NCBI RefSeq assembly: GCF_003019035.1
Contig: NZ_CP027447.1
DNA length: 64,000 nt
Strand: one strand, 5' to 3'
Source: Escherichia coli
GTDB taxonomy: Bacteria; Pseudomonadota; Gammaproteobacteria; Enterobacterales; Enterobacteriaceae
Both the position numbers and the translations under genes were made by a program. Position 1 is the stretch's first letter. The number at the start of each line of letters is the position of its first letter. This document shows, piece after piece, positions 378-24,380 of this stretch. Below the pieces are notes generated by a model. The model ran no database searches. It had not been told where the DNA came from and saw only the letters and a list, made by a program, of their open reading frames with translations.

Positions 378-1409
<1,032 letters not shown>

Positions 1410-1421
1410 CCGCTGATTTAA

Positions 1422-1446
1422 CCGGCGCAGTCTCTCCTGCGCCGGT
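1422..1446. terminator. Hairpin between convergent pgl and ybhD, probable bidirectional terminator
   Basis: Inverted repeat ccggcgcag / ctgcgccgg directly after the pgl stop. Confidence 0.45.
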
Positions 1447-1449
1447 GTA

Positions 1450-2403
1450 TTAACCTATCTCCTGTAACGCATGTCTCTGGCGTTCGACGATATTGGTCCA
1501 CAAATTGTCTTTATCGTCAGTCCACAAATTAATCAGCAAGGCAAAAAAGCGTTCAGCTGCCGGAGAAAGCACGGCATCTTTGCGGCGAATAATCCCCAAT
1601 GTCCGACGTATAACGGGTTCCACCAGTGGGATACCAATAATCGAAGAATAGGGCGCATGGGGCATTGCCAGACCAGGAAGCGCCGAAATCCCCAGTCCCG
1701 CCTCCACCAGCCCTAATGACGTCGAAAGATGACGCACTTCGTAAAACCAGTCCAGCTTCCAGGGCTTGTCGGCTAGCTGTTGTTCTATCAACAGTCGGTT
1801 GCCGCTGGAGGAGCGTACGCCAATCATTTTGTAACCCACTAACTCCTGCCATTCTACAAGCTGCTTTTTGGCCAATGGATGGTCACGCCGACAGGCCAGC
1901 ACGAACGGCTCGTTGACCAGTGGGGTAAAATCGATGGATGAATTTGTGACGTTGTTCATGTTTATGCCAAAGTCTGATTCGTTACACAGCACCGATTCCA
2001 TGCAATTATTCGTGCCTTGTTCCAGAATCCGCACTTTAATATTGGGATACAGCTCATTAAATTTACCGATTGCCAGCGGTAAAAAATAAAATACTGCGGT
2101 CGGAATACACGCTAATGTCACCATACCACGATGATAAGCATTCATATCACGAATATTAAAAAGCGTTTCATCGAATTTCTTTATTAATTCCCGCGCCTCC
2201 GGGAGCAATCTTTTTCCTGCTTTTGTTAACGTAACCTTGCGAGTTGTACGCTCAAATAGTTGGATATGTAAATCCTCCTCCATCTTTTTTATTCTTCGCG
2301 TTAATGCAGGTTGCGTAATATTGAGTAATTTAGCGGCATTGTTAAATGAACTGGACTCTGCCAGTATGACAAATGCCTTCATACTTGATAATTCATGCTT
2401 CAT
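1450..2403 (-). CDS. ybhD: LysR-family transcriptional regulator YbhD
   Basis: Track ORF 1450..2466 trimmed to the internal ATG (MKHELSS...), giving 317 aa; N-terminal HTH then LysR substrate domain. Confidence 0.85.
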   Translation of the reverse strand: MKHELSSMKAFVILAESSSFNNAAKLLNITQPALTRRIKKMEEDLHIQLFERTTRKVTLTKAGKRLLPEARELIKKFDETLFNIRDMNAYHRGMVTLACIPTAVFYFLPLAIGKFNELYPNIKVRILEQGTNNCMESVLCNESDFGINMNNVTNSSIDFTPLVNEPFVLACRRDHPLAKKQLVEWQELVGYKMIGVRSSSGNRLLIEQQLADKPWKLDWFYEVRHLSTSLGLVEAGLGISALPGLAMPHAPYSSIIGIPLVEPVIRRTLGIIRRKDAVLSPAAERFFALLINLWTDDKDNLWTNIVERQRHALQEIG

Positions 2404-2586
2404 TATTACTCCGGAAAATGGAAGCGTCGATTTTGGGTGGCTGACCGTTAAAAATTTTAACTGCATTTAACCAACTTAAATTAATGAAAAAATGTTATTA
2501 ATCGTTGAGCTAAAGTCATTAGAGATGCTTTGCCCTTAATGTAACCATATCGCAATAAGTTATGTTTTTAAATTGAGGGCATTATT

Positions 2587-17249: not shown

Positions 17250-18218
<969 letters not shown>

Positions 18219-18424
18219 TTAACCTGCCAATATTGAGGATACAAACTATTTTCTTCTACCTCTAAAGGACGATGTACGCTATGCCTTCCTGATGATGTAT
18301 ATCAAAGTAAAACCGCCATTTTCCCTTATTCTGTAGCGAAATAGCACGATCATGACGCTATATACATGATTACATAGCGAAAGTGTGGATGGTAAAAATC
18401 TCATTTACACGCTAGTATCGGCTT

Positions 18425-18552
18425 AACCACTAAACACTCTAGCCTCTGCACCTGGGTCAACTGATACGGTGCTTTGGCCGTGACAATGCTCGTAAAGATT
18501 GCCACCAGGGCGAAGGAAGAAATGACTTCGCCTCCCGTATCTGGAAAGGTGT
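18425..18552 (+). promoter_or_regulatory. moaA 5' leader, expected site of the molybdenum-cofactor (Moco) riboswitch
   Basis: About 130 nt of GC-rich leader between a tagtat -10-like element and the moaA RBS; the E. coli moaA leader is known to hold the Moco RNA motif. Structure not verified by folding. Confidence 0.5.
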
Positions 18553-18554
18553 AC

Positions 18555-19544
18555 ATGGCTTCACAACTGACTGATGCATTTGCGCGTAAGTTTTACTACT
18601 TGCGCCTGTCGATTACCGATGTGTGTAACTTTCGTTGCACCTACTGCCTGCCGGATGGCTACAAACCGAGCGGCGTCACCAATAAAGGCTTTCTTACCGT
18701 CGATGAAATTCGCCGGGTTACGCGCGCCTTCGCCAGTCTTGGCACCGAAAAAGTCCGTCTGACGGGCGGTGAGCCATCTTTACGCCGCGACTTTACCGAT
18801 ATCATCGCCGCTGTGCGGGAAAACGACGCTATCCGCCAGATTGCGGTCACCACCAATGGTTACCGTCTGGAACGCGATGTGGCGAACTGGCGCGATGCTG
18901 GACTTACTGGCATCAACGTCAGCGTTGATAGTCTGGACGCCCGCCAGTTTCATGCCATTACCGGGCAGGATAAATTCAACCAGGTCATGGCAGGAATCGA
19001 TGCTGCATTTGAGGCCGGTTTTGAGAAGGTCAAAGTCAATACCGTGCTGATGCGTGATGTTAATCATCATCAGCTCGACACCTTTCTGAACTGGATCCAG
19101 CATCGCCCTATCCAGCTGCGTTTCATCGAATTGATGGAAACGGGCGAGGGCAGCGAGCTCTTCCGTAAGCATCACATCTCTGGTCAGGTTCTGCGTGACG
19201 AGCTACTGCGTCGCGGCTGGATCCACCAATTACGTCAACGCAGCGACGGTCCCGCGCAAGTCTTTTGTCATCCGGATTACGCCGGAGAGATTGGCCTTAT
19301 CATGCCGTATGAAAAAGACTTCTGCGCCACTTGCAACCGCCTGCGCGTTTCCTCCATTGGTAAACTCCATCTCTGCCTGTTTGGTGAAGGCGGCGTTAAC
19401 CTGCGCGATCTGCTGGAAGACGATACCCAGCAACAGGCGCTGGAAGCGCGTATTTCAGCGGCGCTGCGGGAGAAAAAACAGACCCATTTCCTGCATCAAA
19501 ACAACACCGGTATTACGCAAAACTTATCGTACATTGGTGGCTAA
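18555..19544 (+). CDS. moaA: GTP 3',8-cyclase (radical SAM)
   Basis: Track ORF 18474..19544 trimmed to ATG at 18555 ([31 protein letters not shown]), giving 329 aa. Confidence 0.95.
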
Positions 19545-19565: not shown

Positions 19566-20078
19566 ATGAGTCAGGTAAGCACTGAATTTATCCCGACCCG
19601 TATTGCTATTCTTACGGTTTCTAATCGTCGCGGTGAAGAAGACGATACCTCCGGTCACTATCTGCGCGACTCGGCGCAAGAAGCGGGCCATCACGTTGTC
19701 GATAAAGCCATTGTGAAAGAAAACCGCTACGCTATTCGCGCTCAGGTATCTGCGTGGATCGCCAGCGACGATGTACAAGTGGTGTTGATTACGGGTGGTA
19801 CTGGCCTGACGGAAGGAGATCAGGCTCCCGAAGCGCTGCTGCCGTTGTTCGACCGTGAAGTTGAAGGTTTTGGTGAAGTGTTCCGGATGTTGTCGTTCGA
19901 AGAGATTGGCACTTCCACGTTGCAATCTCGTGCGGTAGCGGGCGTCGCTAACAAAACGCTGATTTTCGCCATGCCGGGTTCGACCAAAGCGTGCCGTACC
20001 GCATGGGAAAATATCATTGCGCCGCAGCTGGATGCCCGTACGCGTCCGTGTAATTTCCATCCACATTTGAAGAAATAA
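19566..20078 (+). CDS. moaB: Molybdenum cofactor biosynthesis protein B
   Basis: 170-aa ORF; MogA/MoaB fold with GGTG motif. Confidence 0.95.
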
Positions 20079-20080
20079 GT

Positions 20081-20566
20081 ATGTCGCAACTGACCCATAT
20101 CAACGCCGCTGGCGAAGCGCACATGGTGGATGTCTCCGCCAAAGCGGAAACCGTGCGTGAAGCGCGCGCCGAAGCCTTTGTCACCATGCGCAGCGAGACG
20201 CTGGCGATGATTATTGATGGTCGCCACCACAAAGGCGACGTATTTGCCACTGCGCGTATTGCCGGTATTCAGGCGGCAAAACGCACCTGGGATCTGATCC
20301 CGCTGTGTCACCCGCTGATGCTCAGCAAAGTTGAAGTCAATTTACAGGCCGAGCCGGAGCACAATCGGGTACGTATAGAAACCTTATGCCGCCTGACCGG
20401 GAAAACCGGTGTCGAAATGGAAGCGTTAACCGCGGCCTCCGTGGCGGCGCTGACCATTTATGACATGTGCAAAGCGGTGCAAAAAGATATGGTAATTGGT
20501 CCGGTACGTTTGCTGGCGAAGAGCGGCGGCAAGTCAGGTGACTTTAAGGTGGAAGCGGATGATTAA
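20081..20566 (+). CDS. moaC: Cyclic pyranopterin monophosphate synthase
   Basis: 161-aa ORF; matches MoaC. Confidence 0.95.
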
Positions 20567-20804
20567 AGTTCTTTTTTTCGCCCAGGTGCGCGAGTTGGTA
20601 GGAACAGATGCAACCGAAGTAGCTGCGGATTTCCCAACCGTTGAAGCGTTACGCCAACATCTGGCTGCGCAGAGCGATCGCTGGGCGCTGGCGCTGGAAG
20701 ATGGCAAATTGCTGGCTGCTGTCAACCAGACGCTGGTGAGTTTTGACCATCCGCTGACTGACGGCGACGAAGTGGCTTTCTTCCCGCCGGTAACCGGAGG
20801 TTAA
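20559..20804 (+). CDS. moaD: Molybdopterin synthase sulfur-carrier subunit
   Basis: Track ORF 20496..20804 trimmed to ATG at 20559 ([13 protein letters not shown]...), 81 aa ending in the GG C-terminus; start overlaps the moaC stop. Confidence 0.93.
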
Positions 20805-20805
20805 G

Positions 20806-21258
20806 ATGGCAGAAACCAAAATTGTTATCGGCCCGCAGCCGTTCAGCGTAGGAGAAGAGTATCCGTGGCTGGCGGAGCGTGATGAAGACGGTGCGGTAGT
20901 CACCTTTACCGGTAAGGTGCGCAACCATAACCTTGGCGACAGCGTCAAAGCATTAACCCTCGAACACTATCCGGGGATGACTGAAAAAGCACTGGCAGAA
21001 ATTGTCGATGAAGCGCGTAACCGCTGGCCGCTGGGGCGCGTCACGGTGATTCACCGCATCGGGGAATTATGGCCGGGCGATGAAATCGTTTTTGTCGGTG
21101 TCACCAGTGCGCATCGCAGCAGTGCGTTTGAAGCCGGGCAGTTTATTATGGATTATCTCAAAACCCGCGCACCGTTCTGGAAGCGTGAAGCCACGCCGGA
21201 AGGCGACCGCTGGGTCGAAGCTCGGGAGAGCGATCAGCAGGCGGCAAAACGCTGGTAG
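20806..21258 (+). CDS. moaE: Molybdopterin synthase catalytic subunit
   Basis: 150-aa ORF beginning 2 nt after the moaD stop. Confidence 0.95.
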   Translation: MAETKIVIGPQPFSVGEEYPWLAERDEDGAVVTFTGKVRNHNLGDSVKALTLEHYPGMTEKALAEIVDEARNRWPLGRVTVIHRIGELWPGDEIVFVGVTSAHRSSAFEAGQFIMDYLKTRAPFWKREATPEGDRWVEARESDQQAAKRW

Positions 21259-22099: not shown

Positions 22100-22243
22100 T
22101 TCTTTTTTCACCATCAATATCCCGGCCTGGTGCCGGGATTTTTTCGGATTATATAAAGGCTGTTTCGCTCATTTACATGAGAACTGAATTGCCGCAAATG
22201 CCAGACTATGTCCACTGCATAATTTCAGGGACAGATAACGCAT

Positions 22244-22948
22244 TTGAACAGACGATCCTCTGCTACTCAATTACAGCAAAAAAGCGCTTTGCTCAGAAAA
22301 ATGTTGCCCCTCATTTGGTGGTTAACAGCTGCTGGAGTATGGGCTACGGCAGGCACAGCCTGGATACTGCAGCACATGCATTGGGTTGCTTCACTAGAGT
22401 CTCCAGGCGCGTTTGTCTTCGCTTTGTCTGCGCTGATAATAATTGGTTTCTGGTTAAACAATGCGCTGAAAAGGCTCAAGGCATTAGGCGCATGTCTGGT
22501 CTATCTGCTATTAATCTTGCTTATTGGCTTTCTCTTCACCAGCCTTTTTACCTTTTCGAGCATAGCGACGGTAATGGGAATTACGGGAGGGATGTTTGCC
22601 ACAATGGCGCTGATTTTCTGTTGTATTAATAGGGCTATCCCGCCAGTCAGACAGTTATGTTTATATATCTTCTGTGGTTTGAGTATTGCTTTTGTTGTTA
22701 ACCTGATTCTCACCAGCAGTTTTTCCGTGTGGTTAGCGAGTATTTTGACTGTCGTTATCTGGGGCGTTACGGCTGCCTGTGAAGCAACAACACTGGAAGA
22801 TTTGATTCGTGTTGCCGACTTTTCTGACATTACGGGTTTTCTTCGCTGTACCGTTCCTGGAGCAATAACTCTCTATTTCAGTATTCTAACTGTGCTTTTT
22901 AGGATTGCTGTAACGCTTCTTGATTTTATTAATGGGTTAGTGTGGTAG
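22244..22948 (+). CDS. ybhM: BI-1-like inner membrane protein, YbhM-like paralog 1
   Basis: Track ORF; the listed first codon is TTG, so the true start is uncertain (next ATG is at about 22301). C-terminus GAITLY...DFIN resembles YbhL. Symbol assigned by position. Confidence 0.7.
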   Translation: MNRRSSATQLQQKSALLRKMLPLIWWLTAAGVWATAGTAWILQHMHWVASLESPGAFVFALSALIIIGFWLNNALKRLKALGACLVYLLLILLIGFLFTSLFTFSSIATVMGITGGMFATMALIFCCINRAIPPVRQLCLYIFCGLSIAFVVNLILTSSFSVWLASILTVVIWGVTAACEATTLEDLIRVADFSDITGFLRCTVPGAITLYFSILTVLFRIAVTLLDFINGLVW

Positions 22949-23016
22949 TGCATATTGATGAATTTTTTGCGCTAATGGAAATAGATGTCGATATTTGACT
23001 TAAGGATAGAACAATA

Positions 23017-23730
23017 ATGAAGTCGCGGTCGTTAAATAACATAACTAATAAGTTCCAGCACGAAGCCAGAATATTAAACGCCATATGGCTCATTACCGCT
23101 TTGGGGGTGACAGCAACCGCAGGCCTGGCATGGATAGCTAAGTATCTCGATATCACGGCAACAAAATATGATTCACCGCAAATGTATGTCGCCATAGGAT
23201 TATTATTACTTTGTATGTATGGTTTAAGTAAGGATATCAACAAGATAAATGCCGCCATCGCAGGCCTAATATATCTGTTTTTACTCTCTTTGGTGGCGAT
23301 TGTCGTTGCAAGTTTAGTTCCTGTGCCTGCCATTATCGTCGTGTTCAGCACTGCGGGATCGATGTTTTTAATCAGTATGCTGGCAGGTCTATTGTTTAAA
23401 TTTGATCCTGGTTCTCACCGTTTTATCATTATGATGACGTTGACAGGGTTGGCCCTGGTAATCATCGTGAATGCCACATTAATGAGTGAACGACCCATTT
23501 GGGTAATAAGTTGCTTAATGATTGTCTTATGGTCAGGCATTATCTCGCATGGACGAAATAAGCTCCTTGAACTGACAGGAAAAAGCCATAGTGAAGAATT
23601 ATGGAGTCCGGTTCGTTGCGCTGTTACAGGTGCATTAACACTCTATTACTATTTTATCGGCTTCTTTGGGATTCTTGCAGCAATAGCGATGACGCTTGTC
23701 TGGCAAAGGCATACGCGGTTTCATATTTAA
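23017..23730 (+). CDS. BI-1-like inner membrane protein, YbhM-like paralog 2
   Basis: 237-aa ORF with ATG start behind an AAGGA RBS; shares blocks with the upstream paralog (IWLITALGVTATAG vs IWWLTAAGVWATAG; RCAVTGALTLY vs RCTVPGAITLY). Its length equals annotated K-12 YbhM, so either paralog could be the orthologue. Confidence 0.7.
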   Translation: MKSRSLNNITNKFQHEARILNAIWLITALGVTATAGLAWIAKYLDITATKYDSPQMYVAIGLLLLCMYGLSKDINKINAAIAGLIYLFLLSLVAIVVASLVPVPAIIVVFSTAGSMFLISMLAGLLFKFDPGSHRFIIMMTLTGLALVIIVNATLMSERPIWVISCLMIVLWSGIISHGRNKLLELTGKSHSEELWSPVRCAVTGALTLYYYFIGFFGILAAIAMTLVWQRHTRFHI

Positions 23731-23788
23731 CGCACTTTCGACTTACGTTTAGAAATGTAGTATCTGAAATACAATAGTGGAGAATATC

Positions 23789-24145
23789 ATGCAGTTAGTT
23801 TGTACCATCGATAATAAATATATGGATAAATTTATGGCTATACTGCTTTCAGGAGTGTTACTTTCCTTGAAAGAAGGCACGATAACTATAGATGAATCTG
23901 AACTACTAGTTTTCAGACCTTTTATTTCCAGGCTTTTACACAAAAATGATTGTGATAAAGAGCTAATAGAGATAATTGATCTTGGTTGTGATCTTGAAAG
24001 TATTGAATCATTAGTTCCTGAGTATCTTGATGATGCTATAAAAAACTTAATAATCAAAACAAGTGATTTTACATATGCAATAAAAGATAGTTATCCTTTG
24101 AGTAATAAAATGGAACATGCAGTATCTTTTATGTTTAGAGATTAA
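23789..24145 (+). CDS. Hypothetical small acidic protein (about 118 aa)
   Basis: Track ORF 23777..24145 (GTG) trimmed to ATG at 23789 behind GGAG; very AT-rich; no recognisable motif. Confidence 0.45.
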   Translation: MQLVCTIDNKYMDKFMAILLSGVLLSLKEGTITIDESELLVFRPFISRLLHKNDCDKELIEIIDLGCDLESIESLVPEYLDDAIKNLIIKTSDFTYAIKDSYPLSNKMEHAVSFMFRD

Positions 24146-24158
24146 AAAGGTTTATAAA

Positions 24159-24380
24159 ATGTTCAAAGATAAAACTCTGGCAGCAGATATCAGCGCATTA
24201 ATGCTCAATATTGGTTCTCAATTAGATGCGTCAGTATTATATGTTCAGAAAGCTTGCGATGAATCTGAGCTTAATATTTATCGTTCCGCCGTCGGGGAAA
24301 TTATGGGGCGCATGTTAATCGATATCATGAACCCCATCTATAAACAGCATCCCGAACTTAAACCAAAAGAACTTAACTAA
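24159..24380 (+). CDS. Hypothetical small protein (about 73 aa)
   Basis: Track ORF 24117..24380 trimmed to ATG at 24159 (MFKDKTLAAD...) behind AAAGG, 14 nt after the preceding stop; AT-rich; ends 4 nt from the ybhN stop. Confidence 0.4.
   Translation: MFKDKTLAADISALMLNIGSQLDASVLYVQKACDESELNIYRSAVGEIMGRMLIDIMNPIYKQHPELKPKELN

Follow-up and report, generated by a model that had tools for sequence, protein, structure and literature searches.

The question raised by this locus is whether the leader of the moaA mRNA contains a molybdenum cofactor (Moco) riboswitch and, if so, by which route the genes behind it are controlled. The DNA analysed, referred to here as the window, is a stretch of 64,000 nucleotides from Escherichia coli. 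From its letters alone, the initial annotation had placed a Moco riboswitch at 18425–18552, in a leader of about 130 nt preceding moaA. The length of the leader agrees with the position of the start codon (ATG, 18555–18557) and with published data: the 5′ UTR of moaA begins with AACCACUAAACAC, which is window position 18425 (cloning primer, PMC7815308), and 131 nt were reported from the S1 promoter start to the start codon (Regulski et al. 2008, PMC2408646). A Moco riboswitch before moaA is already known; it was described in 2007–2008, has its own Rfam family, and automatic annotation marks it in every RefSeq genome of E. coli. The moaA leader thus serves as a positive control: from the raw sequence, the 5′ end of a riboswitch that was already known had been located with an error of no more than two bases.

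The window was searched with cmscan (Rfam 15). The Moco model RF01055 matched the segment 18423–18567 of the plus strand with 103.4 bits (gathering score 36; E 1.2e-24), and the alignment spans model positions 1–135 of 135, so that the match is not truncated. At the gathering thresholds no other Rfam family was found in the whole 64 kb. RF01055 is described in Rfam as the 'Molybdenum/Tungsten riboswitch aptamer (Moco RNA motif)', with both types merged under one model. The covariance-model search which had been proposed as a check on the initial annotation therefore returned a significant match rather than none. In a near-identical E. coli genome, the RefSeq/PGAP feature 'molybdenum cofactor riboswitch' covers the same bases, and a covariance model of our own (described below) gave 166 bits for 18423–18567 as its only match in the window. 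With moaABCDE downstream and a leader identical to that of K-12, the presence of the Moco riboswitch in the moaA leader was borne out. The segment is almost certainly the E. coli moaA Moco riboswitch, an OFF switch that lies in the 5′ leader of moaABCDE and acts in cis on this mRNA. It does more than resemble the family, as the moaA leader is itself the type example of Moco RNA. The strength of the identification comes from the model score and from covariation, rather than from folding energy.

The anatomy of the element was obtained by projecting the consensus structure of Rfam on the window sequence (Table 1). Of the 42 consensus pairs, one meets a gap in this sequence; 34 of the 41 mappable pairs are canonical. 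The multistem junction of P1, P2, P3, P4 and P5 is present, as are all the junction nucleotides, AGGG (18507–18510), GCCUCCC (18530–18536) and GGAAAGG (18543–18549), which are invariant across 22 gammaproteobacterial sequences. A GAAA-tetraloop receptor has been described in P2, and published in-line probing was at odds with the P2 proposed (PMC2408646). At the receptor position the window reads CCUGGG...UACGG in place of CCUAAG...UAUGG, the canonical 11-nt motif of the family consensus; the deviation is partly common to other enterics. The defining features of a Moco riboswitch that can be tested on sequence are present, apart from the tetraloop receptor, a variant which may or may not still dock the GAAA loop of P4. 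GGA occurs exactly twice in the leader, in P4 (18515–18517) and in the Shine-Dalgarno (SD) sequence of moaA (18543–18545). These motifs agree in number with the two reported CsrA sites, and from its sequence the motif in P4 is a candidate for one of them.

Some details of the initial annotation fared differently. The 5′ end of its interval coincides with the published start of the 5′ UTR, while its 3′ end lies 9 nt short of the outermost P1 pair, 18425–18561; as the start codon is inside P1, an end at 18552 omits it. The complementary segments noted in the leader are real, the minimum free energy (MFE) structure of exactly 18425–18552 being a four-way junction with the same P1–P4 as the Rfam consensus. 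The description of the leader as GC-rich did not hold (GC 0.516 for 18425–18552 vs 0.511 for the whole window). The promoter region 18219–18424 is AT-rich (GC 0.379), and the leader appears GC-rich only beside it.

Table 1. Elements of the moaA leader, its promoter region and the moa operon, with the basis of each assignment.
Feature	Position	Strand	Basis and remarks
FNR-like site ATGATGTATATCAA, candidate	18292–18305	+	TTGAT-N4-ATCAA, 1 mismatch; ~39 bp upstream of inferred S2 start (~18337)
Imperfect palindrome CGCTATATA-N6-TACATAGCG	18356–18379	+	inverted repeat, 9-nt arms, 89% complementary; ~56 bp upstream of S1 start
TAGTAT, candidate S1 -10 hexamer	18413–18418	+	inspection; transcription start ~18424/18425
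Moco riboswitch (RF01055), aptamer with built-in expression platform	18423–18567	+	cmscan, RefSeq feature, own covariance model
P1, 5′ strand (core ACAC-C 18434–18439)	18425–18439	+	consensus mapping; core pairs covary, 83–94% paired in 97 homologues
P2 hairpin with internal loop	18442–18478	+	10/11 pairs with double-sided changes
P3 hairpin	18480–18505	+	5/5 pairs covary
P4 hairpin, GAAA tetraloop (18519–18522) on top	18508–18533	+	8/11 pairs covary, 93% paired
P5 mini-hairpin, CC 18534–18535 / GG 18543–18544, conserved loop CGUAUCU	18534–18544	+	consensus mapping
GGAAAGG, conserved aptamer core and moaA Shine-Dalgarno	18543–18549	+	5 nt before ATG
P1, 3′ strand	18548–18561	+	spans 3′ half of SD, AUG 18555–18557 and next 4 nt; consensus mapping
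Abundant RNA 3′ end (Term-seq, K-12 817052), placed by coordinate transfer	~18563	+	8 nt from moaA start, just past P1; PMC7815308, supplement 3
moaA, GTP 3′,8-cyclase, 329 aa, first gene controlled	18555–19544	+	TIGR02666, 369.7 bits vs cut-off 284; RefSeq
moaB	19566–20078	+	NCBIfam equivalog above cut-off; RefSeq
moaC	20081–20566	+	NCBIfam equivalog above cut-off; RefSeq
moaD	20559–20804	+	NCBIfam equivalog above cut-off; RefSeq
moaE	20806–21258	+	NCBIfam equivalog above cut-off; RefSeq

Conservation of the element was followed within the species and beyond it. A region of 421 nt around the element was found in 5424 of 5426 complete E. coli genomes. The 145-nt element is at least 99% identical in 5396 of the 5424, leaving 28 records below this value, compared with 509 over the 421 nt, which take in the promoter. 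The transcribed leader of K-12 derivatives is identical to that of the window, the sole difference being base 18423, which precedes the transcription start. Homologues were sought in one genome per species (GTDB r220) with a 21-base core pattern, AGGG-N6-14-GAAA-N6-14-CCTCCC-N6-GGAAAGG, which was found at no fewer than 120 loci. The listed loci come from Proteobacteria, Bacillota, Chloroflexi, Acidobacteria, Actinomycetota, Spirochaetes, Cloacimonadota and others. All 20 loci sampled, the weakest included, exceed the gathering score of RF01055 (54–105 bits).

Covariation was analysed on two alignments. The first, of 22 gammaproteobacterial sequences, was made with MAFFT, blind to structure, and folded with RNAalifold; P2 and P4 were recovered independently, with compensatory changes. 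When the Rfam structure was laid on this alignment, 78% of the cells were paired (66% in shuffles and 35–47% in slid controls). Between enterics and vibrios, MAFFT puts P1 and P3 one column out of register, and only 54–60% of the P1 and P3 cells were paired there. Because of this shift, the sequences were realigned: a covariance model built from five enterics and the Rfam structure was searched against the window and 99 loci, of which 96 matched, giving 97 full-length sequences with the window.

In the 97-sequence alignment, which is fitted to the structure so that independent support is that of MAFFT for P2 and P4, 89.0% of the cells pair vs 63.9 ± 0.6% in shuffles and 34–45% in slid controls. 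Double-sided changes occur in 33 of the 41 pairs. Compensatory cells number 1007 (342 ± 17 after shuffling), and none of 500 shuffles attained the observed covariation score. Every helix covaries except P5, whose pairs are unchanging in 97/97 sequences and are hence neutral as to pairing. P3 is present in 59 of the 97 homologues and absent in 38.

Folding energy is a poor guide to this element. For 18425–18552 the MFE z-score was -1.15, and 28 of 200 dinucleotide shuffles folded equally well; for 18423–18567 it was -1.57 and the MFE structure differed from the aptamer. The minus strand folds 'better' (z = -2.47). The secondary-structure prediction suggested in the initial annotation accordingly gave the aptamer fold for 18425–18552, with an energy within chance and with a different fold for 18423–18567. 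As a test for a riboswitch, the single-sequence MFE was rejected as uninformative or misleading (z from -1.15 to -1.57), its outcome hanging on the 3′ boundary.

The dependence on the 3′ boundary was followed in transcripts starting at 18424. For all 3′ ends tested between 18535 and 18557 the Rfam fold is the MFE structure (P2 11/11, P3 4/4 and P4 9/9 pairs, with 4/5 of P1 once 18553 is reached), and P3 forms in all the prefix folds that contain it except the one ending at 18510. Once the 3′ end reaches about 18558–18562, the MFE switches to an alternative fold. Here the P2 5′ strand (18447–18453) pairs with the 3′ half of the SD (18547–18553), GAUACGG (18463–18469) with the P5 loop CCGUAUC (18535–18541), and AGCC (18441–18444) with the start-codon region (18557–18560); P1 and P2 are dissolved. 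In the nearest-neighbour model, for a leader extending past about 18562, the alternative has -42 kcal/mol; enforcing the aptamer gives -33.2, and the consensus pairs by themselves give -26.6. The probed aptamer pairs of P1, P2 and P5 each have a probability of 4–7% in the ensemble of 18424–18600. The predicted mean unpaired probability of the SD is 0.33 with and 0.30 without the aptamer. Thermodynamic prediction therefore lends no support to a simple two-state picture, in which the closed aptamer hides the SD and the open one frees it, since the SD is predicted to be buried to a near-equal extent.

The alternative fold was also considered as a second conformer of the whole family. This found no support, as both its main helices equal the shuffled expectation: on the 22- and 97-sequence alignments, 70.3% vs 69.0% and 64.6% vs 63.9% of the cells were paired (observed vs shuffled), with no excess of compensatory changes. 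In five enterics the alternative helices are kept mainly through invariance, with one C-G to U-A change, in Pluralibacter. A third conformer of the full-length leader, specific to the lineage of E. coli and its close relatives and relevant to regulation, is, on these energy models, a tentative idea and rather unlikely. The fold agrees with the kinetic control of moaA proposed earlier on computational grounds (PMC3280964), with in-cell and in vitro probing in which the region was structurally heterogeneous, and with the need for CsrA at the SD. If such a conformer exists, the switch would be kinetically controlled, its sensing window shutting as the start codon emerges; the requirement for CsrA in opening the SD would find an explanation, and the abundant RNA 3′ end near 18563 could be related to the conformer.

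The expression platform is built into the aptamer. Four of the seven bases of the SD are paired, G18543 and G18544 in P5 and G18548 and G18549 in P1, and the moaA AUG lies inside the 3′ strand of P1. Published work likewise located the ribosome binding site in P1 (PMC2408646). In 60 of the 120 homologous loci listed, a start codon with an open frame follows GGAAAGG by 3–13 nt, mostly 5–7 nt; an aptamer core that doubles as SD is therefore common and no oddity of E. coli. The riboswitch is directly upstream of moaABCDE on the plus strand and overlaps the start of the operon, the genes of which were identified with NCBIfam equivalog models on the window's own translations. According to the RefSeq annotation of a closely related genome, a divergent yvcK precedes it. 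A 356-aa reading frame from a TTG at 18474 was rejected as moaA; it is a mechanical extension by the definition of open reading frames, and the true start is the ATG at 18555.

An arrangement of this kind argues for control of translation. The other possibility is that the primary output would be premature termination or RNA processing at the aptamer boundary, through Rho or a stable truncated leader RNA. In Term-seq data an abundant 3′ end falls 8 nt into moaA, just past P1 (PMC7815308). Its placement in the window was by coordinate transfer, and the 61-nt string flanking it is an exact match to 18513–18573. In the same study a moaA fusion rose more than 2-fold in rhoR66S, and Rho termination was located in a region inside moaA, about 290 nt into the ORF, which by coordinate transfer would be near 18847 in the window. 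However, the end at K-12 817052 is not Rho-dependent (score 1.24, flagged 'No'), its intrinsic terminator score is 1.08 (PMC7815308), and a terminator scan of 18150–18700 found no terminator-like hairpin. Rho action in an untranslated ORF is the expected result of translational repression. Moreover, the SD and AUG are inside P1/P5, the fusions in which regulation was observed were translational ones under a constitutive promoter (PMC2408646), and CsrA shifts translation without a change in mRNA level. Termination or processing as the primary output is thus improbable, and translational control is the reading that we adopt.

The promoter region was examined by inspection and scanning. No full sigma-70 promoter was found by a consensus scan of 18150–18700, which fits an activator-dependent promoter. 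The imperfect palindrome upstream of the S1 start resembles ModE sites and is presumably a candidate ModE operator. The FNR-like pattern has 6 matches in the window vs 2.5 expected and is weak when taken alone; the S2 start near 18337 and the position of the FNR site are likewise candidates. Published work describes S1 as activated by ModE and S2, at -87, as FNR-dependent (PMC2408646). The assignments of the -10 hexamer, ModE and FNR sites, made from literature and inspection, are consistent with this architecture and are offered as candidates.

The published genetics of K-12 apply to the leader in the window because the transcribed sequence is identical. A translational lacZ fusion of the 149-nt moaA leader under a constitutive promoter was repressed more than 3-fold upon induction of Moco synthesis; disruption of P3 (M1) abolished control and a compensatory mutation (M2) regained it, while tungstate had no effect on the fusion (PMC2408646). 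CsrA is reported to bind the aptamer at two sites and to activate translation (PMC7652899). CsrA alters the translation of moaA at a constant mRNA level and changes the structure of the aptamer.

The features of the window, joined with the Moco response, the action of CsrA and Rho and the promoter control taken from the literature, suggest the following scheme. Transcription would begin at about 18424/18425 when driven by the ModE-dependent S1, and some 87 nt before that position when driven by the FNR-dependent S2. The nascent leader would fold into the four-way junction in which P1 closes P2, P3, P4 and the small P5, with the GAAA tetraloop of P4 directed at the receptor-like bulge of P2. 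Abundant Moco, or a closely related derivative from the molybdopterin stage, would act as the ligand that stabilises the aptamer, so that P1/P5 are held shut and the SD is hidden. The 30S subunit would then be unable to load and moaA would stay untranslated; the untranslated mRNA would be subject to Rho-dependent termination inside the ORF, bringing down the whole operon. CsrA, acting at the GGA motifs of the aptamer, would have the opposite effect, opening the structure and turning translation on.

In this scheme Moco, or a close derivative, would presumably bind the RNA directly. The element could instead be a conserved regulatory RNA that senses Moco indirectly, through a Moco-binding or Moco-responsive protein or through CsrA, and that contains no true small-molecule aptamer, a reading in keeping with the published work consulted, which reports no in vitro ligand binding. 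CsrA binding at two sites inside the aptamer with a change in its structure would fit such a role, as would the exactly two GGA motifs of the leader; with the SD predicted to be buried in both folds, a protein could be required for opening. Yet the same junction core is found in Bacillota, Chloroflexi, Acidobacteria, Actinomycetota and Spirochaetes, where partners of the CsrA type differ or are absent. The subclasses with and without P3 track Moco and tungsten-cofactor metabolism, respectively, and a protein factor was sought and none found (PMC2408646). Folding pockets dependent on Mg2+ have also been reported (cited in PMC10265488). Indirect sensing is therefore highly improbable, and direct recognition of Moco or a close derivative by the RNA is preferred.

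The ligand could also be the tungsten cofactor (Tuco/Wco), for both types are placed in RF01055 and P3 is lacking from more than a third of the homologues retrieved (38/97). The split of 59 to 38 matches the two subclasses of Regulski et al., in which presence of P3 denotes the Moco type and its absence the tungsten-cofactor type (PMC2408646). E. coli, however, has the well-formed P3 that marks the Moco type, and tungstate fails to trigger repression in this organism (PMC2408646), which makes a tungsten-cofactor variant extremely improbable and leaves the Moco-sensing type. Finally, that an ordinary leader with no structured-RNA function resembles the family by chance, a reading in keeping with the unremarkable z-scores of its folding energy, was rejected as having practically no likelihood, being refuted by the E-value of 1.2e-24 against a curated model, the covariation among homologues, the near-invariance in 5424 genomes with more variable flanks (509 vs 28 records below 99%) and the published mutants (PMC2408646).

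Compared with the type example of RF01055, the E. coli moaA leader of Regulski et al. (2008, PMC2408646), the element in the window has P1–P5, the GAAA tetraloop, the junction core and P3 in common. As in the type example, the SD and AUG are in P1 and moaABCDE is downstream; the transcribed leader is that of K-12, and the one difference from K-12 strains is base 18423, just upstream of the transcription start. With respect to the consensus of RF01055, E. coli and its close relatives differ in the CCUGGG...UACGG receptor and an extended P3. The Tuco/Wco variants, the P3-less members of RF01055, share the junction core and P1, P2, P4 and P5, and the same core pattern retrieves both types; these variants are associated with tungsten-cofactor genes, and the element of the window has P3. 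The thiM TPP riboswitch of E. coli follows the same logic, in that an aptamer sensing a coenzyme sequesters the SD in its ligand-bound state (translational OFF), and a kinetic, co-transcriptional mode of control has been put forward for thiM as well as for moaA (PMC3280964). The fold and the ligand of the thiM aptamer are unrelated to those of moaA. Whereas thiM carries a separate anti-SD/anti-anti-SD platform after its aptamer, in moaA the SD itself is within the conserved core of the aptamer.

An alternative fold of the full-length moaA leader is predicted, in which window 18441-18469 pairs with 18535-18560 through three helices (18447-18453/18547-18553, 18463-18469/18535-18541 and 18441-18444/18557-18560). 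The nearest-neighbour model favours this fold over the Moco riboswitch aptamer by 9 kcal/mol. The SD sequence and the AUG are predicted to be buried in it too. The minimum-free-energy structure predicted for successive prefixes of the leader depends on the position of the 3′ end: it is the aptamer when the RNA ends at 18557 and the alternative fold when it ends at 18562. The helices of the alternative fold are retained in five enterics, with a single C-G to U-A change, in Pluralibacter; in homologue alignments across the Moco riboswitch family, covariation was absent at these helices.

An abundant RNA 3′ end was mapped by Term-seq 8 nt into moaA, directly past P1 (K-12 817052), and by the scores of the authors it is neither a Rho-dependent nor an intrinsic terminator (PMC7815308). 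A Rho-dependent region was located in the same study about 290 nt inside the moaA ORF (K-12 817336). Transfer of these K-12 coordinates places the two at window ~18563 and ~18847, respectively. The RNA 3′ end at ~18563 lies close to the point at which the alternative fold replaces the aptamer as the predicted minimum-free-energy structure.

When complete E. coli genomes were searched with the moaA leader sequence, 2 of 5426 were without any match, and two of the matches were located on plasmids. In strain 774 an ISVsa5 transposase gene is present between yvcK and the moaA riboswitch, the insertion being equivalent to window ~18276/18277. The insertion lies some 15 bp upstream of the candidate FNR-like site and thus cuts the moa promoters of this strain off from their native upstream DNA.

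Elsewhere in the window, a strain-variable segment of ~2.8 kb (35077-37882), flanked by rhlE and dinG, occupies the position of ybiA of the reference strain. It was found in only 541 of the 5426 complete E. coli genomes, with identities of 100% in SCU-301 and 99.3-99.4% in IAI39 and CE10. Compared with FDAARGOS_497, the window carries an additional Bax1-I/YccA-family paralogue and a DUF3969 ORF within 22145-24365. ybhD, intact here, carries an internal stop in FDAARGOS_497, where it is annotated as a pseudogene. The final ~1.8 kb (62227-64000) cannot be aligned to FDAARGOS_497; that strain has GH31, MFS and LacI genes at the corresponding place, and this stretch is a further strain-variable junction.

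Features of the strain-variable regions and of the strain 774 insertion
Feature	Sequence	Coordinates	Strand	Remarks
ybhD	window	1450-2403	-	LysR-family regulator
Bax1-I/YccA-family paralogue	window	22244-22948	+	immediately upstream of ybhM
ybhM	window	23017-23730	+	
DUF3969 ORF	window	23777-24145	+	
83-aa ORF	window	35180-35431	-	within 35077-37882
670-aa ORF	window	35682-37694	+	SopA-like HECT-type E3 ligase C-terminal domain (Pfam SopA_C, E 9.6e-15); RefSeq product name 'type III effector'
IS4-like ISVsa5 transposase gene	retrieved locus L124, E. coli strain 774 (NZ_CP183138.1)	1279-2487		urinary isolate

Some anaerobes are reported to carry many copies of the Moco/Tuco motif per genome. 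Among the matches listed for the Moco/Tuco core pattern, at least five separate loci were present in each of two metagenome-assembled genomes, the Actinomycetota MAG STD1_74 (loci L006-L010) and the Dehalococcoidales MAG Zod_Metabat.1136 (L022-L026). The occurrence of at least five core-pattern loci in one genome fits the earlier reports of multiple copies in some anaerobes.
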